The translations under genes were made by a program, and so were the position numbers. The notes beneath the pieces were generated by a model that had not been told where the DNA came from, made no database searches, and saw nothing but the letters and a program-made list of their open reading frames with translations. This document shows positions 21,329 to 63,251 of a DNA stretch of 64,000 nucleotides, in pieces. Positions within the stretch are counted from its first letter, which is position 1, and each line of letters starts with the position of its first letter. Source of the stretch: Clostridia bacterium (GTDB taxonomy: Bacteria; Bacillota; Clostridia; UBA1212; DUPL01); NCBI GenBank assembly GCA_050951325.1, contig JBMNIW010000001.1:129229-193228 (forward strand), written 5' to 3'.

Positions 21329-21346
21329 GGACAAATCGCTCAAGTA

Positions 21347-23296: not shown

Positions 23297-23494
23297 TTTT
23301 CTTCCTCCTACATTTTGCTGCAGTAATTGTACCATACATGTTCCGAAAAGTATAACGAATATTATGTCCTTTCCAAAATTTATAATGAAATAAAAAGAGG
23401 GGTATGTATAATGTAAATACTGTGATAAAATAAACACAATGGATTAAGTTGCACTGAAAACTGATTTTGATAACCAGAATTATGGAGGGAAACC

Positions 23495-28351: not shown

Positions 28352-28600
28352 GTGGCTAAAGCCAGCAGGTTCTAACGTACTTTCCAACTTCTGCACTAAC
28401 CCGAAAGTATAGTGCCACTAATTGGTTTCCGTTAGACTTTTACCACCAATTGTTCCTACGAACAAATTAACGGTAGTTTAGGCTCGTTTCAAAACCCATT
28501 ATATAAACTCATATTACATTCTTTAATGCTTGTCTTACTTCACTATTATTTAATCTTTCAATTTCTTTATCATGTAGTATTTTAAACCTCTCAAAATCTC
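28352..28600 (-). ncRNA. Putative TnpB guide RNA (omegaRNA / reRNA) from the 3' end of tnpB plus the right end.
   Basis: Position only: in characterised IS200/IS605 elements the omegaRNA overlaps the tnpB 3' end and the right end. The 150-nt region 28355-28508 is non-coding. Confidence 0.3.
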
Positions 28601-32301: not shown

Positions 32302-32313
32302 CTTCAATCATCC

Positions 32314-33021
32314 TTACCACGGTTCTGACAGCGGACCATATAAATTGTTCGGCGTCTTCGTGTAATGAATTCTAAGACTAAAAGTTTTGTCTTCCCACAG
32401 CTGATCATCCTTGAAAGCCCTGTGGCTCTCATGGCCAGCAACCCTGTTGAATACACCAATAAAAGTAAAGCTCTCATCATTTAAGATATACAAGAGATAC
32501 TCGCCATCTGGGAGTGGATCAAATGAAAGTTCAACATTTTCCCAGTCATTGAAGTTTACCTTTTTCTCCTCTACCAGTGGCTCGCTTTTCAAGGTATCAT
32601 CGTACGTCCCCTGCCATGCAAAAAGGTAATAGTAGATATGGTAAGGTGGATCCTTGGGAGCACCGTATGTAACAAAGGCCACACTTAACTTGTCAAACTC
32701 TGTAGTGGCAAAGAATTGAGCTGCCATTGAACCAGTAACCTGAGTAGGATCTCCGCTATCATTTTCATCATAGAACAACGCCCAGACTTCTTCATCACTT
32801 GCAATACCTCCTGCGTACTGTCCGGTGCCAGGCGGTATTGTCTCCTTTGGTTCTTGTGTGGGTTCGGAAGTAGGTTCCTCAGTAGGTGCGGTAGTAGGCT
32901 CCTCAGTTGTAACAGGTGTAGGAGTAGCATCACCTTCCGAGGCTTTCTCAATGCAACCTACTAATAATCCTATAGTTATTGCAAAAGTTAAAAATAACAA
33001 TAAAATACATTTATTTGACAT
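32314..33021 (-). CDS. Lipoprotein with a Pro/Thr-rich linker and a beta-domain homologous to the N-terminal domain of the 848-aa GH-like proteins.
   Basis: Lipobox LLVGC. PTPVTTEEPTTAPTEEPTSEPTQEP linker. Motifs AAQFFATTEFDKLSVAF..GEYLLYILNDESF match QFHATTSFNGFNIFF..GEYLLVVNDAYG in 37852..40350. ATG 33021 follows ACAGGAGGCGATTTG. Confidence 0.6.
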   Translation of the reverse strand: MSNKCILLLFLTFAITIGLLVGCIEKASEGDATPTPVTTEEPTTAPTEEPTSEPTQEPKETIPPGTGQYAGGIASDEEVWALFYDENDSGDPTQVTGSMAAQFFATTEFDKLSVAFVTYGAPKDPPYHIYYYLFAWQGTYDDTLKSEPLVEEKKVNFNDWENVELSFDPLPDGEYLLYILNDESFTFIGVFNRVAGHESHRAFKDDQLWEDKTFSLRIHYTKTPNNLYGPLSEPW

Positions 33022-37638: not shown

Positions 37639-37851
37639 GGCACTCCCCTCACTATATATTGCATTTTTCTATACTTTTGATTGTATTATACTGTCTGCAA
37701 CATGCCTTTACAAGCTGCTTCGCAAGGTCTTGTATGTTTTTTGAACAGGATATTTAATAAGTTCCGAAAATTGAACGACTCTGAAAATCTTGCAAAGATA
37801 TAATTGCCATCAAGAGAAGTAATGCAACCTACAAATTTATGGAGGAGTGTC

Positions 37852-40350
37852 ATGAGAAAGTTGCTGTTTTTTGTAATTGCTTCAATACTATTTTTAGTGA
37901 TGCTGATGCTTGCTGCCAGCAACGAACAGACCAATATAATTTCAATCGAGCCATATTACCACAACATGTATGAAGAAAGTGGAGAATCTTATGAAGTTGC
38001 CTTAAACAACAACACGGAAGTGGCTGTTCAGTTCCACGCAACCACCTCGTTTAATGGATTTAACATATTCTTCTCTGGTGGGCTAATATCGAGAAATCCA
38101 TACTTGACCGTGTCTTTGTATGAATGGAATGCAAACTATGCCAAAACCATCAAAGGCAATCCTGTGTTTACACAGAAGTACTTTATTAACAAAAGAGGCA
38201 TATGGCTGGAAGTTAACACACCCGAAACGAAAAAAGGTGAGTACCTTTTAGTTGTAAACGATGCTTATGGAGGTCTGAATGCAGAGGTGGTACTCCCTGC
38301 CACACCAAATACCATGACATATGTGGACAGAACGGAAACCTATGGCAGTCTCATGTGTACAATCAAATATATTAACACACCTGATAAAAAACTAGGTGCA
38401 ATCTCTGAAAATTACAGAGAGTACAACAATACTGCAGACACTTGGGTTTATACAGATGGCCTTGGAAGGAAAAATCCAGATTATTCAAAGGTGAGATCAA
38501 AACAAAAGGATAAGTTTGTCGGAATATTTTATCATACATGGCATGCAAAACACTCAAAAGTAAATAGCAGGAATATTACTGAAATACTAAAGGAACATCC
38601 CGAAATCAAGAACAATTATAGCAGCCCTATATGGCCAAAGGAATCCACAAACTATTTCTGGAATGAACCCTTGTTTGGATATTACAATAACGGAGTTGAC
38701 AGATGGGTACTAAGAAAGCATGCAGAAATGCTTGCAGATGCAGGAGTTGATGTGGTCATCTTCGACCAGACAAATGGCACAGACACTTTTATGGAAGCAA
38801 TAATGACATTGCTTGAAGTGTTTGCCAAAGCCAGGGCTGATGGTGTCAAGGCACCCTGCATTACAGCCATGCTGCCTATGTTTGATTATGGCAATGCCGC
38901 CATCCAGCTAAGGGAGATGTATGACAAAATTTACTCAAAAGGTCTATATAAAGACCTATGGTTCTACTGGGATGGAAAGCCTTTGATGCTGACATGGCCT
39001 GGCAATCTGAATATTAACAACCCAAAAGACAAGGAGATATTTGAGTTCTTTACATACCGTCCGATAAACCCATCATATAGAGAGGATGACGCCCAGGCTC
39101 TGGGACCTGATGGTGAAATAACCATCAAATGGAGTCCGCCTCAAGGCGTCAGGGAGGACTATATCAACTGGAAATGGATAAGCATTTATCCTCAAGCGGT
39201 GGCTTACAGAAAGGATGGAACACCTGAACAAATGTGTGTATGCATCGCACAAAACTGGAGCAAGGAACAAGGCATAACCGCAATGAATGCAGGAGACCAT
39301 GTATTCGGCCGTTCCTACTCTGATAAAAAAGGATATGACTTGAGTAAGGACGGAAAGCTTTATGGTGCAAACTTTGCCGAACAGTTTGAATATGCTTTGA
39401 AGGTTGATCCGGACTTCATCTTCATAACCGGCTGGAATGAATGGGTGGCAGGCAGATTCCAGGAGATGTGGGGTACTGAAAATGCATTTCCTGATAACTT
39501 CAGTGACAACTACAGTAGAGATATTGAGCCATCCAAGGGAGATTTGAAGGATCACTACTACTACCAAATGGTCACGTATATTAGACGTTTCAAAGGTACG
39601 GACGGTTTTCAAAGAAGCAGCGGCAAGAAGAAAATAGACATATACTCGGATTCTGATCAATGGCACGATGTAAAACCTTGGTTTCACGCCTACGAAGGAA
39701 ATACCTTTGCAAGAGAATATGACGGATACAAAGGTTTTACTTACTTTAACGATACAGGCAGAAATGATATTATTGGCGCAAAGGTTGCTTACGATGACAA
39801 CAACATATACTTCATGGTTGAAACCAGAGATGATTTAACCAGCCACACGGATAAAGCCTGGATGCGTTTGTTTATTGATGTAAATGACTCCAAAGATAAT
39901 TGGGAAACATTTGAATATGTAATAAACAGAATCAATCCAAGCGACAAGAAAGCATATTTGGAAAGGTCAACGGGAGGATACAATTGGGAACTGGTTGGAG
40001 AGGTTGACTATGCCGCAAAAGGCAACAGACTGCAGATTGCGGTGCCTAAAAAACTACTTGGCATTAAGGGAGACAAATTCGAATTCAATTTTAAATGGGC
40101 TGACAACACACAAGAAGAAGGAGATGTAATGGACTTCTATATTAGTGGAGACACTGCTCCTCTTGGCAGATTCAAATACCGTTTTGTATCAGCATCGCAA
40201 GGAAAGTGGCTCGATTTCAAAAACAGCCCCTTCCCAATAATCATAATCGCATCATTGTCTCTAATACTTCTATTTTCTTTTGTATTTTTTGTCTGGAAGA
40301 TAAGACTAAGGAAAAATATAAACAGGGGTGATACCAATGAGAGGAATTAA
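37852..40350 (+). CDS. Membrane-anchored TIM-barrel glycoside-hydrolase-like protein (N-terminal beta-domain, catalytic-like barrel, C-terminal beta-region, TM anchor).
   Basis: ATG 37852 follows GGAGGAG. Signal MRKLLFFVIASILFLVMLMLAAS. FYHTWHAKHS, FWNEPLFGYY, AGVDVVIFDQTNG, FIFITGWNEWVAGRF. Tail PIIIIASLSLILLFSFVFFVWKIRLRKN. Paralogue of 1..1524. Confidence 0.75.
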   Translation: MRKLLFFVIASILFLVMLMLAASNEQTNIISIEPYYHNMYEESGESYEVALNNNTEVAVQFHATTSFNGFNIFFSGGLISRNPYLTVSLYEWNANYAKTIKGNPVFTQKYFINKRGIWLEVNTPETKKGEYLLVVNDAYGGLNAEVVLPATPNTMTYVDRTETYGSLMCTIKYINTPDKKLGAISENYREYNNTADTWVYTDGLGRKNPDYSKVRSKQKDKFVGIFYHTWHAKHSKVNSRNITEILKEHPEIKNNYSSPIWPKESTNYFWNEPLFGYYNNGVDRWVLRKHAEMLADAGVDVVIFDQTNGTDTFMEAIMTLLEVFAKARADGVKAPCITAMLPMFDYGNAAIQLREMYDKIYSKGLYKDLWFYWDGKPLMLTWPGNLNINNPKDKEIFEFFTYRPINPSYREDDAQALGPDGEITIKWSPPQGVREDYINWKWISIYPQAVAYRKDGTPEQMCVCIAQNWSKEQGITAMNAGDHVFGRSYSDKKGYDLSKDGKLYGANFAEQFEYALKVDPDFIFITGWNEWVAGRFQEMWGTENAFPDNFSDNYSRDIEPSKGDLKDHYYYQMVTYIRRFKGTDGFQRSSGKKKIDIYSDSDQWHDVKPWFHAYEGNTFAREYDGYKGFTYFNDTGRNDIIGAKVAYDDNNIYFMVETRDDLTSHTDKAWMRLFIDVNDSKDNWETFEYVINRINPSDKKAYLERSTGGYNWELVGEVDYAAKGNRLQIAVPKKLLGIKGDKFEFNFKWADNTQEEGDVMDFYISGDTAPLGRFKYRFVSASQGKWLDFKNSPFPIIIIASLSLILLFSFVFFVWKIRLRKNINRGDTNERN

Positions 40351-42153: not shown

Positions 42154-42939
42154 ATGAAAAATACCTTAGTCAAATGTTTAAATTTATTGATTGTGATAAT
42201 GCTGCTTTCGACATCGGGATGTAAAAACAAAGATGAAGTTGAAAACTCACCCACTCCATATATTACGCCTCTGAAGACTGCAGAACCCACCAGTTCACCA
42301 ACACCAGTACCAAGAGAAATATATGATGGACCGGATTTCGGAAAAAAAGCAGAAATAGAAGTTGATGGGCACCAAATGGATCCAACCGAACGACCTAAAG
42401 AGTTAATGGTGGATGAAGATCCTGATACAAGATGGGCGTTCAAGCTGTTCCCAACCGATGTCATATTCGATTTCGGCGCACCCTTTGTACTTAGTAAAAT
42501 TATTTTTACCTGGCTTAATCTAGAGCGCGAATACTACTACGAAGTATATGCAAGTGTGGATAATAAAAATTGGGAACTAGTAGTTGACCGTTCACAAGAC
42601 TCGGAACCGTATACAACTGTTGATGATTTAAAGGGTGTTTATGCCAGATATCTTTGCATAACACTTATAGACAACTCCGACCAAAACGGATGGGCGGCTA
42701 TTAACGAAGTGGATATTGAAGGTTTCAGGTTCGGTGACTCTGATTATGATGTTGACCTTGAGAATAAACGAATCAAGGTGTCTGAACCATGTGATGTTGA
42801 TACATTTATCAACAACTGCAAACTGGGCAGACTATATGAGGCTTCTGTCCAAACAGATGAAGAGGAAATTAAAGACGGAGATGTTTTGGTTGTAAAATGT
42901 GGCGATGTTGATTTTGAATATGTAATCGTAGTGAATTAA
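42154..42939 (+). CDS. Discoidin-domain lipoprotein, intact copy.
   Basis: Lipobox STSGC. Same architecture as 34094..34858. About 97% nucleotide identity to 44540-44880 over ~340 bp. Confidence 0.7.
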   Translation: MKNTLVKCLNLLIVIMLLSTSGCKNKDEVENSPTPYITPLKTAEPTSSPTPVPREIYDGPDFGKKAEIEVDGHQMDPTERPKELMVDEDPDTRWAFKLFPTDVIFDFGAPFVLSKIIFTWLNLEREYYYEVYASVDNKNWELVVDRSQDSEPYTTVDDLKGVYARYLCITLIDNSDQNGWAAINEVDIEGFRFGDSDYDVDLENKRIKVSEPCDVDTFINNCKLGRLYEASVQTDEEEIKDGDVLVVKCGDVDFEYVIVVN

Positions 42940-48974: not shown

Positions 48975-49469
48975 ATGGCTTTTGTTGAAAATAACAGTAA
49001 CCAACTAACTTTTAATGACAGTTTTTTAGGCTTAACTCAGCGTGAAAGAAATTTTTTACTAAAGTCTTGAGCAAAACCTTTTGCAGAACTTATTTTCCCT
49101 GCAATCGATGAAAAGCCCTTTATTGTATTATACAGTGATAATCCTGCAAGTCGTTCTAATACACCAGTTAACGTGATTATTGGCTTGTTGATTCTTAAGG
49201 AGTACTTAGGATTATCTGATGATGAAGTTTTAGAATCCTTGTTGTTTGATGTCAGATTCCAATATGCACTTCATACAACAAGTTATGAAGAACAACCTAT
49301 GAGTGATAGAACACTTAGTAGGTTTAGAGCAAGATGTCTCGCATATGAGAAGGAAACAGGAGTAGATCTGATTAAAGAATGCATTAATTCACTATCAGGA
49401 AAGATTGCAGCATTGCATATTACACCGAGGTCGTTAGGCAGAAGGAAATTGAGCGTAAAAAAATGCTAA
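48975..49469 (+). pseudogene. IS1182/IS5-type transposase N-terminal (DUF772-like) fragment with a premature stop.
   Basis: MAFVENNSNQLTFNDSFLGLTQRERNFLLKS*(TGA)AKPFAELIFPAIDEKPFIVLYSDNPASRSNTPVNVIIGLLILKEYLGLSDDEVLESLLFDVRFQYAL...SDRTLSRFRARC. Confidence 0.45.
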
Positions 49470-51013
49470 ATGAGGATATGCGTCCAAGAGCATTTGGGGA
49501 TTGTGTTGAAAAAAATGTTGGATATTTCCTGTTCCATTCCTTGATTGAGGAACTTGAGGTCAAGGAAGTAATAGATATTCTCGCCTCTGTCTGTAAGTTT
49601 CGTTTTAGTGTTTACGACCTGCTTACCCAACTTATCTATTCCAGGATCATATGTCCTTGCTCGAAATCCAAGACTGTTTCGGATGTTTTCCCACTCTTGT
49701 ATCGGTATTCTCCGATATCTGAAGACCAGGTTTATGACGGACTTTTCTTTATTGGCGGATCCTATAAGAAGTATATAGAGTTATTTAACAAACAATACGA
49801 GAAGTTCTACAAAAGAAACTACAATAGAGCTTATTTTGATTGTACGAATTATTACTTCGAGATAGACTTTCCGAAGGATGACAAGCAGAAAGGTCCTTCA
49901 AAAGAAAATAGCAAAAACCCCATCATTGGGCAGGCTATGCTTCTTGATTCGGACCTTGTTCCGATTAGTATGCAAATGTATCCGGGAAACGAGTCCGAGA
50001 AGCCATATATAAGGAAAATAATCGAAGAGATGAAGCAGAAATACAATGTGACCGGTAAGACTGTTCAAATTGCAGACAAGGGGCTTAACTGTGCCCGTAA
50101 CATATATGCTGCCGTTGTAGAGGCTAATGACGGATACATCTTTACAAAAGCCATTAAAGGTAGAAAACTAAGCAATAAAGAGAAAAATTGGATCCTGCTC
50201 GAGAATCAAGACAATGTATTTACCGATTATACAGACGCTAAGGGAAACTTGTTATACCGCCTGAAGAGCTGCGTTGATACTTTTGAATATTCCTTCGAAG
50301 AAACTGATCCTGATACCGGCGAGAACAGGAAAATCACTTTCTCGGTAAAAGAAAAGTGCGTAGTTTCATACAATCCATGCCTTGCAAGGAAGCAGCAGGC
50401 TGAGATAAAAAAGATGGTAGACAAAACTCTCAACTACGTTACCCATAAACAGTTGGTAAAAGAAGAGATAGGAGATGCTTCAAAATATTTGAAAGTCACC
50501 AACAAAGACAAACACGGCAGGAAAATTGAGCCTATAATTGAAATAGACACAGCCAAAGTTGAAGAGGACATGAAATTAGCCGGGTACAATCTTATTGTCA
50601 CATCCGAAATCGACATGACGCCGAATCAGATATACGAGGCATATCACGGACTATGGAAGATTGAAGAGAGCTTCCGAATCTCTAAATCCTATCTTGACGC
50701 AAGACCTGCTTATGTACAAAAGCAAGAAACAATTTACGGGCATTTTCTTATATGTTACCTTAGTTTGTTTCTTTTACGTATATTGGAAATCAAGTGTTTC
50801 AAAGACAAAGTTAATGCCTATGACATCATAACATTCATACGTGACTTCAGAGTCGTGAAGAAGGATGACAACACGTACATAAACCTTTCCCGCAATCGAA
50901 GTGCTAATGAAAAGATTAAGTCTGTTACTGGGATCAATGTATTGGATGCTCTGTACTTAACAGAACGAGAACTTGACAATTTATTTGATTCTACTATCCT
51001 AATCGACTACTAA
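49463..51013 (+). CDS. IS4-superfamily DDE transposase body, IS1634-like; lacks the ~70-aa N-terminus, which appears to sit at 45621..45785.
   Basis: D..T..YYFE (NRAYFDCTNYYFEID), QIADKGLN, and the C-terminal YEAYHGLWKIEESFRISKSYL signature. 516 aa. Confidence 0.7.
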   Translation: MLNEDMRPRAFGDCVEKNVGYFLFHSLIEELEVKEVIDILASVCKFRFSVYDLLTQLIYSRIICPCSKSKTVSDVFPLLYRYSPISEDQVYDGLFFIGGSYKKYIELFNKQYEKFYKRNYNRAYFDCTNYYFEIDFPKDDKQKGPSKENSKNPIIGQAMLLDSDLVPISMQMYPGNESEKPYIRKIIEEMKQKYNVTGKTVQIADKGLNCARNIYAAVVEANDGYIFTKAIKGRKLSNKEKNWILLENQDNVFTDYTDAKGNLLYRLKSCVDTFEYSFEETDPDTGENRKITFSVKEKCVVSYNPCLARKQQAEIKKMVDKTLNYVTHKQLVKEEIGDASKYLKVTNKDKHGRKIEPIIEIDTAKVEEDMKLAGYNLIVTSEIDMTPNQIYEAYHGLWKIEESFRISKSYLDARPAYVQKQETIYGHFLICYLSLFLLRILEIKCFKDKVNAYDIITFIRDFRVVKKDDNTYINLSRNRSANEKIKSVTGINVLDALYLTERELDNLFDSTILIDY

Positions 51014-51374: not shown

Positions 51375-51988
51375 TGTTCTTCAAGGGCTTTGGATTCACG
51401 CTTGAAGAAATACGCAATAGATTAATGACAATAAACTCAGCCCAGGATTTTGCCAAATTACTTGCAAAACAAAAAAATGTCATCGAGGAACAAATAAGAC
51501 ATTTAGAGAAGATAGTATCTCTTATGGATGAAACCATAGAGAGAATAGGCCCTAGTGAGAACCTCTCAATAAACATGGTTATGGCAATATTGAAAGCTGC
51601 AAAACAAAATGACTTTTATTCTCTGGTAATTGACAGTATAGACAAGAAATACATGGATTCCTTTTTATTAAATGAAGCCAAAACCGACTTAAAAGATTGG
51701 GACTCTCTTTTGACAAGATTAAAAGAATTACATAAGAAAGATGCAGACCCTTTTGGACAGGAAGCAGAAAAACTGGCAGAAGACTGGTGGAACAGGATAA
51801 TGGAATTGACAGGAGGAGATCCTAATTTGATTGCTACTGTATTTAGTGCTGGAGAGTCCTTGCCCAACTGGCCGGAAGAAACTGATGACATAAAGACTGC
51901 CATTGAAAAGATCCTATCCCCTGCTCTTGGCAGTTACCTGCTAAAACAAGGTATCGTCCCACCGGGCATGGAGGATGGTTTCAAATGA
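51206..51988 (+). CDS. MerR-family transcriptional regulator with a C-terminal effector domain.
   Basis: N-terminal MerR HTH FTVGELAKKCGVTVRTLQYYDQCGLL, coiled-coil region, 260 aa. Confidence 0.8.
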   Translation: MNEDCLFTVGELAKKCGVTVRTLQYYDQCGLLSPSRYSEGGRRLYSIDDVLRLQQILFFKGFGFTLEEIRNRLMTINSAQDFAKLLAKQKNVIEEQIRHLEKIVSLMDETIERIGPSENLSINMVMAILKAAKQNDFYSLVIDSIDKKYMDSFLLNEAKTDLKDWDSLLTRLKELHKKDADPFGQEAEKLAEDWWNRIMELTGGDPNLIATVFSAGESLPNWPEETDDIKTAIEKILSPALGSYLLKQGIVPPGMEDGFK

Positions 51989-52890
51989 CTCTGGCAGTTC
52001 AAGTAAACTCGTTGGTAAAGAAATACGGTTCAAATACGGCTGTCGACAATATCTCTTTTAATATATATAAAGGCGAAGTCTTTGGTCTGTTGGGACCAAA
52101 TGGAGCCGGAAAAACCACAACTCTTGAAATTATTGAAGGTCTGCGCATGCCAACATTGGGAGAAGTTTATGTAGAAGGCCTAAGTCCAATAAGAGATACA
52201 AAAGAACTAAGAAAAGTCCTGGGAGTTCAATTGCAGATATCCACGCTGCCTGAAGTCATGCGTGTTGACGAGGCAATGGAACTTATTTGCACCTTCAAAG
52301 GCATAAAGCCCAGGTACGATTTGCTTGAAAGGTTCGGATTGGTAAAACAAAAAAAGCAGCAATATGGAAAACTCTCTACAGGACAAAAGAGAAGACTTCA
52401 ACTTGCCTTGGCTATCTGTGGCAATCCCAAAGTTGTAATACTGGATGAACCAACAGCAGGTGTAGATGTTCAAGGAAGGGCGCAGCTTCATAATGCCATT
52501 AGGGAACTTAGAAAAAATGGCGTTACAGTAGTTATAGCGACTCATGACATGGCAGAGGCCGAAAGCTTGTGTGACAGAATCGCCATAATCATAAACGGCA
52601 AACTTGCAGCTTTGGGAAGCCCCGATGAAGTAACAGCAAAAGGCAGCTTTCAAACAAGAATAACCATCCGCACCAAGAAAGGAAATTTAACTTCACAAGG
52701 TAATATTAAAAAAGCCACTTTTGCAAGCCAAAAGGAAAACAATGCCTTATGGCTCTGCACGGATACAGCTTCTGCAATAATTGAAATGCTGTCTGCCATT
52801 GATGCAGATGATGAGGTTCTTGTTCTGAGAGTGGAAAGACCGTCTCTTGAAGAAAGATTCTTGGAACTTATGGAAGGAGGAAACTCATGA
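51985..52890 (+). CDS. ABC transporter ATP-binding protein.
   Basis: Walker A GPNGAGKTT. Signature LSTGQKRRLQLALAI. Walker B ILDEPTAGVD. ATGA overlap with merR. Confidence 0.9.
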   Translation: MTLAVQVNSLVKKYGSNTAVDNISFNIYKGEVFGLLGPNGAGKTTTLEIIEGLRMPTLGEVYVEGLSPIRDTKELRKVLGVQLQISTLPEVMRVDEAMELICTFKGIKPRYDLLERFGLVKQKKQQYGKLSTGQKRRLQLALAICGNPKVVILDEPTAGVDVQGRAQLHNAIRELRKNGVTVVIATHDMAEAESLCDRIAIIINGKLAALGSPDEVTAKGSFQTRITIRTKKGNLTSQGNIKKATFASQKENNALWLCTDTASAIIEMLSAIDADDEVLVLRVERPSLEERFLELMEGGNS

Positions 52891-53695: not shown

Positions 53696-54805
53696 GTGAG
53701 ACCAGTAACACTGCTAATCAAGCCTGCATCGAGCTTATGCAATTTAAGATGCACATATTGTTTCTATCATGACGTTGCAAAAAAAAGACTGTCACCTTCA
53801 TACGGCCTTATGACAGAGAAAACCCTTGAAGTCCTTGTACGGAAAGTTTTCCAGTATGCAAAAGGTTTTGCATACTTTGGTTTTCAAGGTGGCGAGCCTA
53901 CATTGGTAGGCTTGACGTTTTTCGAAAAACTGGTGGAGCTTCAAAAGAAGTACAATATCTGGGGTGTTAAAGTTATTAATGCCATACAGACAAACGGAAC
54001 ACATTTGAACAAGAACTGGGCAGAGTTTTTCCATAAAAACAATTTCCTTGTTGGTATCTCCTTGGATGGTCCGCCCAACATACACGACAGATTCAGATTA
54101 AATGCTGATGGAAAAGGTTCTTTTGACAAGGTAATGGGTGCTGTCAAACTGATGGAAAAACACGAGGTTGAATACAATATTCTGTGTGTAGTTAACAATG
54201 TGGTGGCAGAAAATGCAGCCAGGGTTTACAGGTTTTTTAAATCGAACAATATAAAATACATACAATTTATTCCCTGTTTGAATCCCTTCGGAGACGAACA
54301 TGTATATTACGACTACACTTTAACCAGTGAAAACTATTTGAACTTCCTCAAAACCACATTTGATCTTTGGTACGAAGACTGGTCAAGAGGCACACCAATT
54401 AGTATAAGAACCTTTGACAATTACGTGAGCATGATTGCTGGTTACCCTCCAGAAGCCTGCGGAATGAGTGGTGTCTGCTCATGCTACTTCCTTGTTGAAT
54501 CCGATGGAAGCGTCTATCCCTGCGATTTCTATGTTCTTGATGAATACAGGTTAGGGAATGTACTTGAAAACTCTTTGGAAGAGATGATGGAGACGGATAC
54601 TGCGAATGCATTTGTTGAAGAATCCAGGATAATTCATGACAAATGCAAAAATTGCAAATGGTACAGGATCTGCAGAAGCGGATGCAAAAGAAACCGAGAC
54701 CCAAACACACACGAAAACCTGTACTGCGATGCATACTACAACTTTTTTGAGTATGCATATGACAAAATGGACCAGATAGCAAATATATTGAAGAGGCAGA
54801 TATGA
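53696..54805 (+). CDS. Anaerobic sulfatase-maturating enzyme (radical SAM plus SPASM domain, AtsB/ChuR-like).
   Basis: CNLRCTYCFY (CxxxCxxC). C-terminal SPASM cysteines (CGMSGVCSCYF..YPCDFY..CKNCKWYRICRSGC). GTG start after AAGAAGGGAG. Confidence 0.85.
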   Translation: MRPVTLLIKPASSLCNLRCTYCFYHDVAKKRLSPSYGLMTEKTLEVLVRKVFQYAKGFAYFGFQGGEPTLVGLTFFEKLVELQKKYNIWGVKVINAIQTNGTHLNKNWAEFFHKNNFLVGISLDGPPNIHDRFRLNADGKGSFDKVMGAVKLMEKHEVEYNILCVVNNVVAENAARVYRFFKSNNIKYIQFIPCLNPFGDEHVYYDYTLTSENYLNFLKTTFDLWYEDWSRGTPISIRTFDNYVSMIAGYPPEACGMSGVCSCYFLVESDGSVYPCDFYVLDEYRLGNVLENSLEEMMETDTANAFVEESRIIHDKCKNCKWYRICRSGCKRNRDPNTHENLYCDAYYNFFEYAYDKMDQIANILKRQI

Positions 54806-55093: not shown

Positions 55094-58024
55094 TTACGGT
55101 ATATTCACAAGCTCTATTTCATCAAAATAGAAGACTCCACTGCTTGCACTGTCTGCAGGATCAAATCTAAGCCTTGTAAGATTTCCAATCCATTTCTCCA
55201 CATTACTCATGTCAAGCACTATTTCCTCAAAATCCGTCATATTACTTTTCAACGTAAACATCTTGAACTGTCCGGCAATATTCGGATGAACTGTTGTGGT
55301 AAAGTAAACCTGACATCTTGTTGAATTAGTCGTATTCATATACCTAATCTTTACCGCATTGTACTTCTCAAGAGGAACCGACAAATCAGTCTTCATCATG
55401 TAAGCATCCTGTCCTGTAATGTTGCATCCAAGTTTCCCATCCTTAACCTCGAAGGTCATGTTGTTGGCAGCCCTCCAGCCTTCTGCATCCTTTTCAAAAG
55501 ACCATGTAACCTCCGGGGATTTTCCGACCAGCTCAATAGAATCGTAGAGTATTGATCCAGAATCGGCATTATCTATGCCGTCTATCCGTATCTGCACAAT
55601 ATTGTCCTTCCAGCCTTCATATTTCCCAAGGTCAATGAAGTAAGTGACAAAATCATCCATGTATGATGGAATGTATATCCTCTCGCTCTTTTTCTGGATA
55701 TTGTACTGGCCATCCGAGGAAGTTATCCAATAAACTTCCATTTCCCAGGCACTGGACATATTCTTAAACCTTATCTTCAACACCGATGCCTCAACACTAT
55801 TGATATTTATCTCCGGCGAATGAATATATGCATCCGTTTCATTAACAGTAAACTTGATACAGCCATTTTCCCGTTCAAGGTTGCCCTTTCTTGCAACTGG
55901 TACAAAGAATCCGTCAAGACCATCATCAAACTGCCAGGAAACTATCGCTTCTCCCAAACCCTTTGGAGCAGTTACAAGCTGTTCATACACCATTTTGTTC
56001 TTTTCCATATCTACAAAAGATGGTGTCATGTTTGGCAACCACTTTACCTCATCCCTTTTTTCAAAGGAGTCAAAATATGCATGGGTTCTTTTAATATCCT
56101 CATTAGTAAGGTTGACCTTATCTCCAGCAACAATGATAAGATCTCCGTAAACCGCAACCTTCTTCTTAAGCTTTCCGGATTCCACATATCCATCCTTGCC
56201 TTTTACCCCCAGGATATCAGCTGGCAGATATATCTTCTTGCCGTCCTTTTTAGGAACCAGAACAAGCTTGCCATCATACCCTTTGTTAATAACAGACCTT
56301 GTTCCTATTCTGAACACAACGGCATCCTTAATCTTTCCAAGATACTCAGTATCCGCATTCTCTATTACCACTTTTGGATATTCTTTTATGGCACTATCCT
56401 TTTCAACCTCTTTTGCAAATTTCTTCACCCACCCATCCCATGCAATATATTCTATTGGAACCTCGGCATTGGAATTATATGCATTATTCTTAACAGGCAT
56501 TGCTTGAGGAGTTTTAGCCAAGTGTTCCTCTATATAACCTTTCAACTCTTCCACTTTATCAGGATATTTGTCAGCAAGATTTACCGTTTCAGAAATGTTT
56601 TCCTTGAGATTGTAAAGCTCATATCTTTCTTTTCTACCCTGAAGAGTTTCGTAATTTACAATAAGTTTCCACTCTCCCGAATTCACTGCTATGGCCGAGG
56701 TGTTGCCAGGCGCAGGTACATTCTGCAAAAAGACTGTAAATATGCCCTTGCGCTCAAGAGTCTTTTTTGTTCCATTTAAAAGAGGGACCAACGACACACC
56801 GTCAAGAACCTGTGTGCGATCTTCCAAACAGTGATGGTTTGCATTTTTAAATTTTGAGGGATCTATTGTAATGTCAGCCAGTTCAAGCAACGTCGGATAG
56901 AAGTCAACAGCATGAATATTTTCCTTTATGACTCCTCCTTTGGTCATACCAGGAACCTTCATTACACAAGGTACCCTTATGCCTCCTTCGTAAATTGTTC
57001 CCTTGCCCTGCCTGAGCGGATAGTTGTTTGTCGGAAAAGATCCGTCAACACTGTCATACATATTGCCGCCGTTGTCTCCCATAAACACAATGACGGTATT
57101 GTCATACACTCCGTTTCTTTTCAGACTGTCTACTACCTTTCCTATCGCATCGTCCAACGCCTTTATCATGGCGGCCATCTGATAGCAGTTCTCCTGTTTG
57201 CTGCCTGGTGCATCCTTATTCTTGAAGTACTCTATGTATTCTTTCTTTGCATGGAAAGGTCCATGAACTGAAAAATCCCACAACTCAAGCAGGAAGGGTT
57301 CTCCCTTCTTAACTGCATCCGTGATAAATTTATCCGCTTCTCTTGCCAGTCTGTCAGTTATGTGTTCATCCTCCATGAAAAGCTCACCATTGTCCCATAC
57401 ATTACCAGGAAAACCGCCAAAGTATGGTGGATAATATCTACCAGGACCTGCAACCGGCATTCCCAGGTCCACGTCAAAACCTCTATTTCTCATCTGATGC
57501 TCTTCACCCCTGCCCAGGTGATGCTTGCCGATAAACCCGGTGAAATATCCATTATCCTGGAACGCCTGTCCAATGGTAAACAGATTTTCTGGCAGTGCAT
57601 TAAGAGAATTTTTTGTTCTGTACTCCTGCCATGGACTTGCTCCTCCGTCAACATTGAATTTCTCATCGCTTCCCTCCAGGTGCCCCCTGGGAGCATTAAT
57701 CATTGTTCTGTGAGGATACTGTCCAGTTAGAAGCGCTGAACGAGTTGGGGAACACAATGGATGAGCATATGCGTTTGTAAACGTTATACCATCTCTAGCA
57801 AGATTTTGCAGATTGGGCGTTTCATAAAAAGTACTGCCATTCAAAGCGGTATCCATATACCCAAAATCATCACCCAGTATAAATACAAAATTCATCTTAC
57901 CGCTGTAAGCCTTATCCTTTTTATCTGTTTTCTTAAAATGCCTATACACCATACCTGCCGAAACAGCTGAAGCTGCAGCAACAGATATGGCAACTGCAGC
58001 TGTGATAAATTTTTTACGTTTCAT
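55094..58024 (-). CDS. Cys-type sulfatase (976 aa) with two tandem C-terminal ~150-aa domains of unknown function.
   Basis: Signal peptide. Sulfatase signature LCSPTRSALLTG (C-x-P-x-R). The C-terminal repeats (..GCIKFTVNETDAYIHSP..VLKIRFKNMSS..IVQIRIDG..ILYDSIELV / ..LGCNITGQDAYMMKT..AVKIRYMNTTN..LTRLRFDP..VFYFDEIELV) match the domain of 1521..2351 and 61217..61930. Confidence 0.85.
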   Translation of the reverse strand: MKRKKFITAAVAISVAAASAVSAGMVYRHFKKTDKKDKAYSGKMNFVFILGDDFGYMDTALNGSTFYETPNLQNLARDGITFTNAYAHPLCSPTRSALLTGQYPHRTMINAPRGHLEGSDEKFNVDGGASPWQEYRTKNSLNALPENLFTIGQAFQDNGYFTGFIGKHHLGRGEEHQMRNRGFDVDLGMPVAGPGRYYPPYFGGFPGNVWDNGELFMEDEHITDRLAREADKFITDAVKKGEPFLLELWDFSVHGPFHAKKEYIEYFKNKDAPGSKQENCYQMAAMIKALDDAIGKVVDSLKRNGVYDNTVIVFMGDNGGNMYDSVDGSFPTNNYPLRQGKGTIYEGGIRVPCVMKVPGMTKGGVIKENIHAVDFYPTLLELADITIDPSKFKNANHHCLEDRTQVLDGVSLVPLLNGTKKTLERKGIFTVFLQNVPAPGNTSAIAVNSGEWKLIVNYETLQGRKERYELYNLKENISETVNLADKYPDKVEELKGYIEEHLAKTPQAMPVKNNAYNSNAEVPIEYIAWDGWVKKFAKEVEKDSAIKEYPKVVIENADTEYLGKIKDAVVFRIGTRSVINKGYDGKLVLVPKKDGKKIYLPADILGVKGKDGYVESGKLKKKVAVYGDLIIVAGDKVNLTNEDIKRTHAYFDSFEKRDEVKWLPNMTPSFVDMEKNKMVYEQLVTAPKGLGEAIVSWQFDDGLDGFFVPVARKGNLERENGCIKFTVNETDAYIHSPEININSVEASVLKIRFKNMSSAWEMEVYWITSSDGQYNIQKKSERIYIPSYMDDFVTYFIDLGKYEGWKDNIVQIRIDGIDNADSGSILYDSIELVGKSPEVTWSFEKDAEGWRAANNMTFEVKDGKLGCNITGQDAYMMKTDLSVPLEKYNAVKIRYMNTTNSTRCQVYFTTTVHPNIAGQFKMFTLKSNMTDFEEIVLDMSNVEKWIGNLTRLRFDPADSASSGVFYFDEIELVNIP

Positions 58025-58051: not shown

Positions 58052-59575
58052 TTACACTCTTCTACTTATTTTCCTGGGATCTCCCGGGTCTTCGGTCTCC
58101 TCCATCCACATGTCAATTACCTTCCTGAGTTTCTCAACAACCTTTAATTGTTCTTTTTCATTCATCAGGTTCTTTGTCTGACCAGGGTCATTGTCAATAT
58201 CGTACAATTCCTCATAAGGTCTGGAAAAGACGCTCATCATCAAATCATATTCAAAGGGGTATTCATCCTTTGCATTGACTATGGCATCATAGGAAAGATT
58301 ACCCCAGTCCTTGCCATAAAGGTCTGCAGGCAGCTTGTATTCCAGTTCCGGCATAAGATTTCTTATGTACAAATATCTTCCATCAAAAACCGCTCTTGAC
58401 GGATAGATCTCTCCAGGACCGTGAGCATTGTGCTCAGTAAACACATACTTTCTGCCCTTAGCACCTTTCTGTCCTTCAAGAATCGGTCTTAACGAAATAC
58501 CCTGCATATTATCAGGAATCCTTACACCAATGCAATCAAGTATCGTTGGTGCAATATCAATCAAACTGACAAGCTCGTCGGTATTCACATTGCTCTTAAT
58601 ACCCGGTCCTTTGATTGACAGAGGAACATGGGTTCCGTCAAAATACACTGATGCTTTGGCACGAGGATACGCATACCCTTGGTCGCTTGTGTATATGATA
58701 ATGGTTCTGTCCATTTCGCCAGATTCCTCAAGCTCTTCAAGCACATGGCCAATTGCGGCATCCATAGTCTGTACGGAAGACAGATAATTGGCGTAATCCT
58801 GCCTGACCATAGGAATGTCAGGAAGGCCCACAGGCAAGACAACATTATCAGTTTTCACCTTGTATCTGCCATCAATACCCGACTGCCACTCCCTGTGTGT
58901 ATTACCGAAGTTTACCATTAGAAAAAATGGATCATCTTTGTTTTTTCTTCTGACCATATTTAGAAATGTCTTTACAGATTGCGCGCCGCTTGTCACAGGA
59001 AGTCTTGGTGACTGCAGTCTGTAGTCAAAAGGATATTTCCAATGAGGACTCAAGTGCCATTTCTGCGTTATTCCGGTAACATACCCCTCTTCCTTCAGAA
59101 TTTCAAGAAGGGTTGGGATATCTTCATGAACTCCCACAGTATCCTGCATTGAAGACTCTCTGCCAAACTCCTTTTCTGGCGCATTTATTGGTGGAGTTAT
59201 TGTATTTCTCCAATGACCATTTGAGTGCGGATACATTCCTGTGAAAATAGAACTTCTGCTGGGAGAACACGATGCACAAGAAGAAAAGGCGTTTGTGAAA
59301 AAGGTACTATCTCTTGCCAACTTGTCAATGTTCGGTGTTGAAAGACCAGGCGTACCAACATGCGATAGATGGTAGCTTTGATCGTCCGCAAGCATCAATA
59401 CTATATTCGGTTTTCTTTCAAGTCCTCCAATAATGGTCATGGACTGGGTAGGTCTTGGACTAAAATCCAAATTGTCCTTGTCTCCTTCATTTTTTAAACT
59501 ACTGCATCCTCCCAGTGCACTTACAGCAAACAAGGAGGTAAGACCCAAAGAAACGGTTTTTCTAACAAAGCTCAT
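58052..59575 (-). CDS. Cys-type sulfatase lipoprotein.
   Basis: ATG 59575 follows GGTGGAG. Lipobox ALGGC. Signature SCSPSRSSIFTG. LMLADDQSYH metal-binding N-terminus. Confidence 0.85.
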   Translation of the reverse strand: MSFVRKTVSLGLTSLFAVSALGGCSSLKNEGDKDNLDFSPRPTQSMTIIGGLERKPNIVLMLADDQSYHLSHVGTPGLSTPNIDKLARDSTFFTNAFSSCASCSPSRSSIFTGMYPHSNGHWRNTITPPINAPEKEFGRESSMQDTVGVHEDIPTLLEILKEEGYVTGITQKWHLSPHWKYPFDYRLQSPRLPVTSGAQSVKTFLNMVRRKNKDDPFFLMVNFGNTHREWQSGIDGRYKVKTDNVVLPVGLPDIPMVRQDYANYLSSVQTMDAAIGHVLEELEESGEMDRTIIIYTSDQGYAYPRAKASVYFDGTHVPLSIKGPGIKSNVNTDELVSLIDIAPTILDCIGVRIPDNMQGISLRPILEGQKGAKGRKYVFTEHNAHGPGEIYPSRAVFDGRYLYIRNLMPELEYKLPADLYGKDWGNLSYDAIVNAKDEYPFEYDLMMSVFSRPYEELYDIDNDPGQTKNLMNEKEQLKVVEKLRKVIDMWMEETEDPGDPRKISRRV

Positions 59576-59720
59576 CAGCTCCACCAACTTTCATATTCTA
59601 ATTAATCGTTTACTATACATTTATATTATCACAACAAATAATCAGTTTTCAATTGTTTAAAAAGATTGACCAAAGAAAATATTTTCCGTATTATTAAAAA
59701 AACAAGCAAAGGAGAAGAAA

Positions 59721-61124
59721 ATGAAAGAAAACCTCACTTTATTCTTTGATGACAAGAATATACTGTCAAGAAACGGATTTACAAGAAAACTGGGAAGCCC
59801 AAAAGCAATTGAAATCTACAAAGATCCTAGCGCTACAACAGCAACCGGCTTTCCTTCAATATGGCATGATGAGCAAAACGGTAAATACCATATGTTCTAC
59901 AACGGACATGTAAACGGCAAACTGGTTCCCTTAGCTGCAATAAGTGATGACGGTATACACTTCAGTCCCAGAAACACTGCAGAAGAAGCAGGTCTCAATA
60001 ATCCTACAGCCCCCAACCAGGTGATGATTGGATGCGGGGAACTTGCAAATGTTTATGTAGATAAAAAAGGACCCTCATCCGAAAGGTTGAAAGCTTTAGT
60101 TACATACGGTGACTCAAAGACAACAAGAATTATAAACGACCCATTGTACACCTCACCAGACGGAATAAATTGGACAAGACAGCCTGTGCAGTGGCACAAC
60201 CACGCAGCAGAGCCTGGGGCGATGTGTTTCTACAACCATGTTATAGACAAACACTGCATCATTGCAAGGCCGGATGCAGGTGTTAGAAGAGTTGGGCTTA
60301 TTGAAACATCTGATTTCAAATCTTTTTCAGACGCTCGCCTTGTCATGACACCCGATTCATTGGATGAGCCCCTTGCAGAGCACTATGGAATGCCTGTATT
60401 TCCTTATGAAAACTATTTCATAGGTTTTCTGTGGATATATCATGTGCCGAATGTGAGAAAAAGAAAGTATTACGGTGGAACAATTGACGCCCAGCTTGTT
60501 TACTCCTACAACGGAACAAACTTTAACAGAACCTTGAGGGAAGCATTTTTCTCAAAACAAAAGGGTATGATATTTCCCAGCTGCATGTATGAAAGTACCG
60601 ATGGAAAACTGCTGGTTGTCGCAAGCACATGCGAAAACGAGCATGGATACTTTAAAAATAATGGAGTAATTGAAATATATGAAATAAGGAAAGATGGCTT
60701 CATATCCCTGCACGCAGATGATAACGCCGATCTTATAACCATCCCCATGCTTTACAGAGGCGGGGATATAAAAGTCAACATTAATGCCGAGCACTGCACA
60801 TGCGCACTGTATACGGATGACAGTGACAAACATCCTCTTAATCTTCTTGAACATGAGCTTCTGCCTCTTGAGGGATTCTCCCATGAAGAATGTAAAGCCT
60901 TCTCCGGGGATTGTTTAGTCTGGACTCCTAAATGGAAAGAAAAAGATGTAAATTGTCTTGAAGGAAGAATAATCTACATCGAATTAAAACTAAAAAAGGG
61001 AGATATCTATTCCATAAAAGGAAATCTTACCCCAATGATGATATGCGATCTAGCAAGGTATCACCTGCATGGAAGTAGATATCACATCGAATTAAAACTA
61101 ACAAAGGGAGATATGTTTCCATAA
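59721..61124 (+). CDS. Cytoplasmic five-bladed beta-propeller glycoside-hydrolase-like protein (GH43/GH32/GH130 superfamily).
   Basis: No signal peptide. Propeller-like repeats. RBS AGGAGAAGAAA. The 3' end carries an internal tandem duplication. Confidence 0.55.
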   Translation: MKENLTLFFDDKNILSRNGFTRKLGSPKAIEIYKDPSATTATGFPSIWHDEQNGKYHMFYNGHVNGKLVPLAAISDDGIHFSPRNTAEEAGLNNPTAPNQVMIGCGELANVYVDKKGPSSERLKALVTYGDSKTTRIINDPLYTSPDGINWTRQPVQWHNHAAEPGAMCFYNHVIDKHCIIARPDAGVRRVGLIETSDFKSFSDARLVMTPDSLDEPLAEHYGMPVFPYENYFIGFLWIYHVPNVRKRKYYGGTIDAQLVYSYNGTNFNRTLREAFFSKQKGMIFPSCMYESTDGKLLVVASTCENEHGYFKNNGVIEIYEIRKDGFISLHADDNADLITIPMLYRGGDIKVNINAEHCTCALYTDDSDKHPLNLLEHELLPLEGFSHEECKAFSGDCLVWTPKWKEKDVNCLEGRIIYIELKLKKGDIYSIKGNLTPMMICDLARYHLHGSRYHIELKLTKGDMFP

Positions 61125-61216: not shown

Positions 61217-61930
61217 TTACTCCCCTCGTCTATTAGGTGGCACATAGGCTTCAGCATCTTCCATTGACTTAAAGAAACCAAAGTAATCCACAGTAATTGT
61301 GGAATTTGCGATATTGCCTCCCAATATATCCGCTCTGAAATCCGTTAGAATTTCTGCTCCTTCGGGCTTGATTTCGTTAAAATCCATATATATTACCTGC
61401 CATTCATCTGTTGCTTCTGCTGTGAACGTACGGGCTTGGTTCTTACCAAATCCTACTTTGTCACCATCATATGCAAAATACATTTGTCCACCTGTAGCTT
61501 TTGCTGAATTTTTGAAAAGCATCTTGAATATTGCATACTCTGTAATATCAATCATGCCCTCAGGCAGAGGAACAGTAAAGTACGGATCAGGAACATCTTC
61601 AACTGTAATCAACAGCCCTTCATCGGTATACTCATGGGTGGAGTTGGCAGGTTTCAAGGGAATACCCTCAAACATACTGTCAATGATATCTTCACCCTCG
61701 AATGCAAAACGATATAAAATGGCATCTATATCTGCATCGGGGTCTGGTGTTGGAGTCGGTGTTGGTTCAGGAGTATCTGTAGGTTCAGGAGTATCTGTAG
61801 GTTCGGGTGTATTCGTTGTATCCGGTGGAACATCAGTAGCTTTAGGACCTACCCCCATACCGTCACACCCAGCAAACACCAACATTAAAATAATTACAAA
61901 TAAAATACAAATTGCCCTTTTAACTCTCAT
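61217..61930 (-). CDS. Lipoprotein: PT/PE-rich linker encoded by tandem 18-nt repeats, plus the same unassigned ~150-aa domain as 1521..2351.
   Basis: Lipobox VFAGC. TPEPTDTPEPTDTPEPTPTPTP. ..EYAIFKMLFKNSAKATGGQMYF..FRADILGG..TVDYFGFFKSMEDAEAY. Confidence 0.65.
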   Translation of the reverse strand: MRVKRAICILFVIILMLVFAGCDGMGVGPKATDVPPDTTNTPEPTDTPEPTDTPEPTPTPTPDPDADIDAILYRFAFEGEDIIDSMFEGIPLKPANSTHEYTDEGLLITVEDVPDPYFTVPLPEGMIDITEYAIFKMLFKNSAKATGGQMYFAYDGDKVGFGKNQARTFTAEATDEWQVIYMDFNEIKPEGAEILTDFRADILGGNIANSTITVDYFGFFKSMEDAEAYVPPNRRGE

Positions 61931-61955: not shown

Positions 61956-63251
61956 TTATTCAAATATTAATGCATCCTTGAGATAAACAGGCTGAAACAA
62001 GAGTAAAGATCCATCATTGTCAATAACTTCAACACGAACATATTTCTCGCCGTTTAGTGTGTATTGGCCCTCTTTGGTTGTTTGCTCTAACAATACCTTG
62101 CCTTCCTCAGTAATAAACCTATATGTAAAAGTGTTATTATCAGGCTGCTTTGGATCCCTGGCCTTAACCTTTATGATGTCACCCTCTAAAACCAAGTACT
62201 CTGGAAAGAGACCTGTAGAGGCACAAAACCGCCCATTATCAATAGCTTTTCTCATAGATTCATATGCAATATCTTCAGTATAGATAATGTTGTAGCTTTT
62301 ATTCACATCTCCCAATTGGTGCATATCGTCATTTCCAAAACCATAAACCAATCTACCTTTTGTAAGCAAGTAATCCCACACATCTGTGGCAATAGGCTCA
62401 CCTGTCGGCAAACGGTTAATCAGCATGTTTATTGCTTCTATCCCTATATAGCCTTTTAGATTAAGCAGTCTGTACTTGTTCCAAAACCATTGTTGAGGCC
62501 AGTTTGGATGAGCCAAAATTGTAAAGCCTCCCGCTTCTTTTGCCATGTTAATTGCAGTCTGATGGTCATACTCATGAAGAGATTGATCACAGCCAACTGT
62601 CACCATGTGCTCTTGTACCGAGTATTCCACCCCTGGTACCATGGTCATGTTTTTATCTGTAAACTCCGATGTATCCGAAAACAAATCATGATTGGATATT
62701 GCAAGAAAGCTAAAATTCGCTTCTCTATAAGCGTTAACCACTACATCAATATCATTCGAACCACAGGTATTTGGGCCAGTGCCCGCATGTGTATGGAAAT
62801 TTGCTTTTCTCCATTTTCCTTTACTTAAGTTCTGGTATGGGTTTACATACATTGAGTTGCCTTCAACGTTGGAACCCCAAAACATGTTAAAACTTCCTTT
62901 ATGTTCATCACCAATCATTGTCACTATATACTCCCCTGCACTTTCCAAATCTACTTTAAATTCTGAGGTTCCAACTGAGTTTTTTACATAAACCAGTTTC
63001 CTCTCCGCATCTTTAACATAGACATCCAGATTGCCACTCTCAGTGACAAAACTAAAGTGTAAAGATGGTTTTACCCCTTCATCAATAGTAATAACTTCGC
63101 TCTTCTCGCCATAAAAGTTGTCATAACTTACATTTATCGAATACTCAGTGGTATTCTCTGTAGCGTTTTTGAATGAATACCCAGCTTCTTTGCATGATTG
63201 CAGCATAAGCGAAGATAATACAAGAATGAATATTGCTAACCTTCTCTTCAT
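61956..63251 (-). CDS. PHP-domain (CehA/McbA-like) metal-dependent hydrolase lipoprotein.
   Basis: Lipobox MLQSC. ANFHTHAGTGPNTCGSND, AISNHD, ILAHPNW histidine motifs. RBS AGAAGGGA. Confidence 0.65.
   Translation of the reverse strand: MKRRLAIFILVLSSLMLQSCKEAGYSFKNATENTTEYSINVSYDNFYGEKSEVITIDEGVKPSLHFSFVTESGNLDVYVKDAERKLVYVKNSVGTSEFKVDLESAGEYIVTMIGDEHKGSFNMFWGSNVEGNSMYVNPYQNLSKGKWRKANFHTHAGTGPNTCGSNDIDVVVNAYREANFSFLAISNHDLFSDTSEFTDKNMTMVPGVEYSVQEHMVTVGCDQSLHEYDHQTAINMAKEAGGFTILAHPNWPQQWFWNKYRLLNLKGYIGIEAINMLINRLPTGEPIATDVWDYLLTKGRLVYGFGNDDMHQLGDVNKSYNIIYTEDIAYESMRKAIDNGRFCASTGLFPEYLVLEGDIIKVKARDPKQPDNNTFTYRFITEEGKVLLEQTTKEGQYTLNGEKYVRVEVIDNDGSLLLFQPVYLKDALIFE

Follow-up and report, generated by a model that had tools for sequence, protein, structure and literature searches.

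The window considered here is the whole 64,000-nucleotide stretch of Clostridia bacterium DNA (contig JBMNIW010000001.1, positions 129,229 to 193,228). It codes for four copies of one homologous domain. Two stand in tandem at the C-terminus of a large sulfatase and are called d1 and d2. The other two occur singly in small proteins from opposite ends of the window, A and B. The domain is a ~140-residue beta-jelly-roll family within the superfold typical of carbohydrate-binding modules (CBMs), also called galactose-binding-domain-like. It is unnamed as far as Pfam, NCBIfam and the PDB go, and the hidden Markov models (HMMs) of CAZy itself lie outside that comparison. The family is common to bacteria of several phyla and to tailed phages. 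We argue that its role is to bind glycans, without catalysis, on the outside of the cell, and we put the probability of this at roughly 0.6. The genes and regions that carry the argument are these:

55094..58024, minus strand: large sulfatase gene, 976 residues (open reading frame; Pfam Sulfatase at E=1.3e-54, plus SGSH_C)
56516..57892, minus strand: sulfatase catalytic region, residues 45-503 (PF00884 at 45-385, PF16347 at 341-503)
55952..56515, minus strand: linker or stalk region, sulfatase residues 504-691 (no Pfam match at E<=1)
55517..55951, minus strand: domain copy d1, sulfatase residues 692-836 (BLASTP against d2; 112 bits on the independent family HMM)
55097..55516, minus strand: domain copy d2, sulfatase residues 837-976 (153 bits on the same HMM; AlphaFold2 model; CBM-like fold)
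1521..2351, minus strand: protein A, 276 residues, one domain copy at about residues 26-228 (1668..2276) (open reading frame, HMM, hhalign)
61217..61930, minus strand: protein B, 237 residues, one domain copy at about residues 66-234 (61229..61735) (open reading frame, HMM, hhalign)

A reading made from the sequence alone had taken the last ~300 residues of the sulfatase for two tandem copies of a domain, and this is correct. Together d1 and d2 are the last 285 residues, and BLASTP aligns them over their full length (E=9.5e-19, 27% identity across 139 columns). The motifs it had picked out are all there: SWQFDDGLDGF/TWSFEKDAEGW, GCIKFT/GCNITG, DAYI/DAYM, VLKIRFKN/AVKIRYMN, IVQIRID/LTRLRFD and YDSIELV/FDEIELV. 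It had also placed one copy in each of the surface-anchored proteins. Here pairwise comparison goes only part of the way. BLASTP joins d2 to A (E=1.3e-6) and A to B (E=1.1e-10), while d1 against B and d2 against B are not significant, and the pairwise support for B is transitive only. Profile methods are unambiguous where the pairwise links are only transitive, so we consider the homology of the four copies settled. An HMM built independently from 305 domain copies in 146 other proteins, with the window's own proteins excluded, gives 63.6 bits to A (residues 74-221) and 54.3 bits to B (residues 96-228), next to 112 bits for d1 and 153 bits for d2. When a profile of A and B only is compared with a 41-member family profile by hhalign, the match has 99.4% probability and E=1.1e-21 over 150 columns, which is the whole domain; residues 70-230 of B map onto profile columns 5-155. 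The similarity of A and B to the sulfatase copies is thus well above significance by profile comparison. Chance similarity and low-complexity repeats are ruled out by E-values of 1e-19 to 1e-49 against the independent HMM. Scanned in six frames, the window yields these four copies and no others; the next best open reading frame has E>1.

The size of the family depends on how it is searched for. A word-indexed protein search with the tandem domain returned three near-identical fragments, later 15 matches, and made the domain look falsely like an orphan. A scan of GTDB species representatives with the same query gave a sole distant match, in a metagenome-assembled genome (MAG) of the Planctomycetota at 29% identity. 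An exhaustive HMMER search corrects this picture. Across 1.84 billion cluster representatives (clusters at 50% identity) it finds 2,388 at E<=1e-3, 793 at E<=1e-10 and 97 at E<=1e-30. Secreted multidomain proteins of large size make up most of the family. For the 146 top-scoring proteins that lie outside the window's groups, the median length is ~1,040 residues, with 2-8 matched stretches each. The family signature runs W-x-F-x4-E-G-W ... G-x-L ... T-G-x-D-P ... [IV]-x-[IV]-[RK]-x-K-N ... [YF]-[FW]-x-T ... Y-x-x-D-[ML]-S ... W-x-G-x-[IL]-x-x-[LI]-R-x-D-P ... G-x3-I-D-Y-I.

The next line of reasoning is the fold. An AlphaFold2 model of d2 from a 15-row alignment is an 11-strand beta-sandwich with a predicted local distance difference test (pLDDT) score of 92.5 and a predicted template modelling (pTM) score of 0.85. 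The top Foldseek matches of this model in the PDB are almost all CBMs: CBM86 (6sgf), CBM11 (1v0a), CBM6, CBM29, CBM4, CBM30, CBM28 and CBM15. Each has a probability of 1.00, a template modelling (TM) score of ~0.5-0.65 and 8-15% identity. Gingipain adhesin domains, domain III of Cry toxins and CIA30-type assembly factors are also among the neighbours. In a viral structure library, tip-attachment and straight-fibre proteins match d2 with TM scores of 0.76-0.81. The sequence-only reading had called the domain a CBM-like binding module. The fold part of that claim stands. As for binding, we infer it from the fold together with the enzyme partners.

It is worth asking whether the domain is simply a divergent member of a CBM family that has already been defined (CBM6/35, CBM4/9/22, CBM32, CBM11 or CBM86, for example), or of a recent CAZy family that has no structure or Pfam model. 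A Foldseek probability of 1.00 to many CBM families is what one would expect on that explanation, and sub-threshold Pfam matches are scattered among the members (DUF4979 7e-4, Endotoxin_C 7e-4, Agarase_CBM 0.008, Cleaved_Adhesin 0.085). Yet in 41 diverse isolated copies no Pfam gathering score is attained, and any one family turns up in at most 2 of them. The Pfam CBM families CBM_6, CBM_35_2, CBM_4_9, F5_F8_type_C (CBM32), CBM_11 and others all stay below their gathering thresholds in these copies, and none appears at E<=1 in the domains of A and B. No model of Pfam-A or NCBIfam covers the domain in the window proteins, in ten relatives or in the 41 copies. The statement that it matches no named family is therefore borne out, and the profile searches that were run assign it to no described CBM or immunoglobulin-like family. 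The family profile against all PDB sequences retrieves no CBM chain at E<=1; its sole significant match is a phage protein discussed below. The CBM structures themselves are at 8-15% identity and a TM score of ~0.6. We consider membership in a defined family quite improbable.

What the closest CBMs share with the domain can be stated more exactly. CBM86, which binds xylan in Roseburia intestinalis (6sgf), and CBM11 of Lic26A-Cel5E from C. thermocellum (1v0a) are jelly-rolls of similar size with Foldseek E-values of 5e-7 to 1e-5 and TM scores of 0.6-0.65. CBM86, CBM11, CBM6, CBM29 and CBM4 also share the role of an appendage on secreted glycan-active enzymes. They differ in sequence, are missed by the family profile at E<=1 and find no counterpart in a Pfam CBM match. 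The resemblance is at the superfold level and is not family membership. Just two weak echoes recur in the curated libraries, and they are of little help in naming the domain: DUF4979 (PF16351) recurs at 7e-4 and 0.017, far below cutoff, and the Riean_0653 family (NF052634) reaches 28 bits against a cutoff of 57. Both matches are partial, and both families are themselves without an assigned function. A literature search for a described family of this domain returned nothing specific.

The one solved member of the family is the phage protein just mentioned, Megatron of roseophage vB_DshS-R4C (8gtc chain M). It is a relative in sequence, with residues 488-626 matching profile positions 5-141 at E=4.3e-12. 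The profile was needed for this: phmmer of the tandem domain against the PDB finds Megatron only, at a non-significant E=0.88. It is also the best structural match to d2 (TM 0.78, root-mean-square deviation 3.0, 25% identity). It shares the W/Y-x-F..EGW start, the DP turn, the W..tIt.lRfD motif and the terminal I-x-x-I-R strand. Unlike the copies in the window, it is inserted in a phage tail protein and not in a bacterial enzyme or surface protein. Residues 482-629 of Megatron were called a "carbohydrate-binding" domain by its authors, who proposed attachment to the capsule (PMC10276861).

The company the domain keeps is our third line of reasoning. Pfam partners were counted in 54 family members. 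The most frequent is the sorting tail of the type IX secretion system (T9SS; 8 members), then right-handed beta-helix (6), SLH (5) and fn3 (3). SASA esterase, GDSL, CBM6, CBM35, WbsX and GH99 occur in 2 members each, and PL8, GH18, GH28, sulfatase, dockerin and CBM_4_9 in 1 member each. Partners of this kind point to an accessory module of glycan-active proteins that are secreted or sit at the surface. The generic CAZy definition of a CBM also demands demonstrated binding in at least one member. The domain is a discrete fold appended to a carbohydrate-type sulfatase here, and elsewhere to PL8, GH18, GH28, GH99-like, SASA and GDSL domains; it is CBM-like by fold and context.

One can imagine a module with the same partners that binds something other than the substrate. 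It might hold the protein to the cell's own wall or capsule polysaccharide, or it might bind a protein partner in adhesion or assembly. The cleaved-adhesin domains of gingipains and the phage tail-tip proteins are among the fold neighbours, and so many unrelated catalytic partners would suit generic surface attachment. However, members are usually anchored already, by a T9SS tail, SLH, dockerin, lipobox or transmembrane helix, and a second retention device is not needed. The recurrent fusion to glycan-active domains fits substrate targeting better: 14 of the 146 best members carry a region like the putative glycoside hydrolase encoded next to protein A, and a sulfatase is found twice. Binding to a non-substrate is in our view unlikely.

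We return to glycan binding and to the sulfatase. From its N-terminus this protein has a hydrophobic signal or anchor, an S1 formylglycine-type catalytic domain with a CSPTR motif, the linker, d1 and d2. It has everything expected of an S1 formylglycine sulfatase, namely the Sulfatase domain, the C-x-P-x-R motif and a maturase gene nearby. Among sequences with a solved structure, the catalytic domain is closest to the kappa-carrageenan sulfatase S1_16 (9fo1, E=2.7e-72), to GalNAc-6-sulfatases and to an iota-carrageenan sulfatase, and by sequence it resembles the carbohydrate sulfatases of the S1_16 and S1_19 groups. Beyond it, Pfam finds nothing in residues ~504-976, even at E<=1. Residues 504-691 (~190 residues) are similar to none of 163 fetched family proteins except the identical P0017, and may be a stalk or a further domain. 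A divergent metagenomic sulfatase of 928 residues (P0070), whose catalytic domain is 37% identical, has three C-terminal copies of the domain. The architecture is therefore not unique to this organism. In the scenario we favour, the two copies after the linker would keep the enzyme, itself tethered to the membrane, in contact with a polymeric glycan, and two sites would add avidity.

Proteins A and B present the domain without an enzyme. As read from the sequence, A has a cleavable signal peptide (cut between VMA and SEA), the domain, a linker and, at its C-terminus, a transmembrane helix with a tail of basic residues. The resemblance to a sortase anchor is confined to this hydrophobic, basic end (Pfam Gram_pos_anchor E=0.21), and with no LPXTG-like motif beside the helix we reject an LPXTG anchor for A. 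B has a lipobox (VFAGC), a Pro/Thr-rich linker and a domain copy ending in GFFKSMEDAEAY. Each thus has an export signal and a surface tether, and neither has another Pfam domain or a catalytic domain. Given the signal and anchor sequences of the sulfatase, A and B, all four copies should sit on the outer face of the membrane. The copy in A has an insertion of ~25 residues and a C-terminal GFFKTREEADAY helix motif. A and B form a subtype with an added C-terminal helix motif, GFF-x-[ST]-x-E-x-A-E-x-Y, and the same type of ending is found in some copies within large proteins (P0105, P0106, P0115). Other uncultured bacteria have B-like genes, and A-like genes, as neighbouring pairs of paralogs (contig L001, 5314..6742; contig L002, 812..2499). 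Identity of the second copy to its counterpart in the window is 54% for B on L001 and 43% for A on L002. These pairs suggest that the small surface proteins have diversified.

We propose that A, tethered by its transmembrane helix, and B, with its lipid anchor and Pro/Thr stalk, would act as surface glycan-binding proteins and would keep substrate at the cell surface for neighbouring enzymes. The comparison is with the surface glycan-binding proteins (SGBPs) of Bacteroidota polysaccharide utilization loci and with the CBM-only surface proteins of Gram-positive gut bacteria. A and B are like these in being non-catalytic, surface-tethered and single-module, and A is further like them in its co-transcription with a glycosidase-like enzyme. 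They are unlike them in having no SusC/D context and a host that, going by how its homologs are named, is apparently a monoderm member of the Clostridia, and binding by A and B is a prediction.

The partner of A would be an unclassified GH99/GH71-like enzyme that we call X, encoded by the overlapping downstream gene. The genes around A, and the other X-like sequences in the window, are as follows:

1..1524, minus strand: 5' part of enzyme X, a GH99/GH71-like putative glycoside hydrolase (the reading frame runs off the window start)
2357..3247, minus strand: glycyl-radical-enzyme activase
3240..5408, minus strand: glycyl-radical enzyme
5405..6490, minus strand: Zn-dependent alcohol dehydrogenase
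37804..40350, plus strand: full X paralog, 848 residues (homology to X)
32443..32859, minus strand: N-terminal-like X fragment, with weaker similarity

The TGA stop of A (1523-1521) overlaps the ATG of the X gene (1524-1522) as ATGA, and the genes upstream of A are packed with gaps or overlaps of <=8 nucleotides. On this arrangement of the reading frames A is the fourth gene of a five-gene minus-strand unit (1..6490), with predicted translational coupling to X. The sequence of X begins with a signal-anchor and has no match in Pfam, NCBIfam or the PDB sequences. Its homologs number more than 1,616; those with a name are from MAGs of uncultured "Clostridia bacterium", and CBM6 or dockerin is present in some. 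An AlphaFold2 model of X (pLDDT 88.3) has an N-terminal sandwich, a central barrel and a CBM9-like C-terminal sandwich. In a fold search the barrel is nearest to the GH99 endo-alpha-mannosidases and GH71, with target-normalised TM scores of 0.45-0.54 and 11-15% identity. Judging from this model, X may be a new glycoside hydrolase family. The X-like catalytic region in 14 of the 146 best family members means that it is fused to the domain in other bacteria. A related metagenome contig has two tandem A-like genes with an X homolog (L2_862) ~5 kb away. We argue that A probably works with X, because the module is fused to X elsewhere and is encoded with an overlapping start here. This combination of fusion and adjacency is the strongest functional clue that the sequences offer.

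The glycyl-radical enzyme itself falls below every NCBIfam equivalog cutoff (TIGR01774: 457 bits against 678). It must be said that a cytoplasmic radical-enzyme pathway in one operon with surface glycan-handling proteins is unusual.

Several points weigh against a glycan-binding role. No experimental ligand data were found for any member of the family. The carbohydrate-binding label of the Megatron domain was given by fold only, and that protein was built as a backbone model only (PMC10276861). In the window the ~11-strand beta-jelly-roll is seen in the model of d2, and A and B are placed by sequence. The gene context of B is not conserved, since its neighbours differ between the window and contig L001. 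The conserved W-x-F, EGW, G-x-DP, K-N, Y-x-x-D, W-x-G, R-x-DP and I-D-Y-I may belong to a structural core or a metal site and not to a binding platform. Arrays reach 7 or 8 copies in a protein, which also fits a spacer or stalk. Finally, the acidity of all copies argues weakly against electrostatic binding of polyanionic sulfated glycans.

Some of these points lead directly to another explanation, that the domain is a spacer or display element that binds nothing and projects catalytic domains in the way of Ig-like, fn3 or DUF1735-type domains, with A and B as scaffold or filler. Long tandem arrays and conservation concentrated at positions that look like core are natural in a spacer. A conserved aromatic platform was not identified, and a further CBM could be redundant in those proteins that already contain genuine ones (CBM6, CBM35, CBM_4_9, F5/8 type C). 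However, a single anchored, free-standing copy has nothing to space, and A, B and the tandem paralogs of L001 and L002 are all of this kind. B already has a Pro/Thr stalk beneath the domain. The fold neighbours are ligand-binding CBMs and not Ig or fn3 spacers, and phages put the domain in receptor-binding tail tips. A pure spacer does not make much sense of these facts, and we give it only a small chance.

A glycan-binding module need not bind a sulfated glycan. The sequence-only reading had proposed that the ligand is the sulfated or otherwise decorated glycan targeted by the locus, and this is not indicated. All four copies are acidic, with isoelectric points (pI) of 4.0-4.9, and the median pI of the family is 4.6 with 3% of copies above pI 7. 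These values rule out a basic, sulfate-binding character of the domain. The partner enzymes are diverse, and no single ligand can be read from context because the family is attached to very different enzymes. Specificity for sulfated glycans is not supported as a property of the domain, though d1 and d2 in particular may have it. Nor do the three genes make up one glycan-targeting locus, as had been supposed. Distances of 53-60 kb separate them, and the DNA in between holds mobile-element genes, regulators and unrelated operons. Among the mobile-element genes are the following:

28509..29966, minus strand: TnpB-like gene of the RNA-guided-endonuclease family
49463..51013, plus strand: DDE transposase

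If glycan binding is accepted, a broader claim can be put forward, and we do so only tentatively, at somewhat less than even odds. The domain would be a major CBM family with thousands of members in Bacillota, Bacteroidota, Planctomycetota and tailed phages that has no name in the curated libraries. Uncultured anaerobic Clostridia would use it both fused to enzymes and as free-standing membrane- or lipid-anchored SGBPs that partner a likewise unclassified GH99/GH71-like family in a glycyl-radical-enzyme operon. At the very least there is an annotation gap. Neither Pfam nor NCBIfam has a model for a domain that occurs, often several times per protein, in no fewer than 2,388 clusters of proteins at 50% identity. 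Annotation therefore leaves blank large parts of phage tail proteins and of the glycan-degrading enzymes that gut, rumen, soil and marine bacteria secrete. Both a name and a ligand would help to annotate carbohydrate-active enzymes better and would explain how membrane-tethered sulfatases and the X family find their substrate in uncultured Clostridia. They would also give a handle on host recognition by phages with the same module. If the claim is true, a defined ligand would make this the first member of a new CBM family and would give SGBPs a Gram-positive analogue. The biology that we expect is conventional, that is, substrate targeting by an accessory beta-sandwich, so this would be the discovery of a family rather than a surprise. 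What is new is that the family is unnamed in Pfam and NCBIfam and that it is linked to X by fusion plus adjacency. The CBM-type fold and the accessory-module role are of a kind already known.

The genes next to the sulfatase are these:

53696..54805, plus strand: anaerobic sulfatase-maturating enzyme (NCBIfam PRK13758 at 480 bits, cutoff 441; Radical_SAM and SPASM)
58052..59587, minus strand: second sulfatase, 511 residues, without the domain (Pfam Sulfatase at E=5.4e-47)

Anaerobic sulfatase-maturating enzymes activate sulfatases of the Cys type. The maturase gene lies downstream of the large sulfatase and is convergent with it, and the second sulfatase is 27 nucleotides upstream of the large one on the same strand. 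The sulfatase gene order is the same on four metagenome contigs. The identical 976-residue protein with the same neighbours is present in 75 indexed blocks of a public assembly collection (contigs of <=50 kb). The gene is thus intact and widespread. A promoter and terminator scan around 54.7-63.6 kb was uninformative. One database protein from JGI (P0002, 317 residues) consists of about the first 186 residues of the window's ABC ATPase (51985..52890, plus strand) fused directly to d2, with the junction VT. In the window the two parts are on opposite strands (d2: 55097..55516, minus strand). P0002 is probably a chimera of metagenome assembly or a rearranged variant.

B has two neighbours of its own:

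59721..61124, plus strand: protein of 467 residues, with no family match and no obvious signal peptide
61956..63251, minus strand: lipoprotein of 431 residues, 25 nucleotides upstream of B on the same strand

The lipoprotein has a sub-threshold match to CehA/McbA-type metallohydrolases (74 bits against a cutoff of 80).

The window is also rich in other glycan-related proteins. They include three with F5/8 type C (CBM32-like), DUF2961 with LamG, a melibiase-like protein, and Big_2 with a 3-keto-disaccharide-hydrolase-like domain, and they are encoded at:

6907..9168, minus strand
18074..21343, minus strand
21347..23437, minus strand
23495..25759, plus strand
30442..32307, minus strand
42154..42939, plus strand

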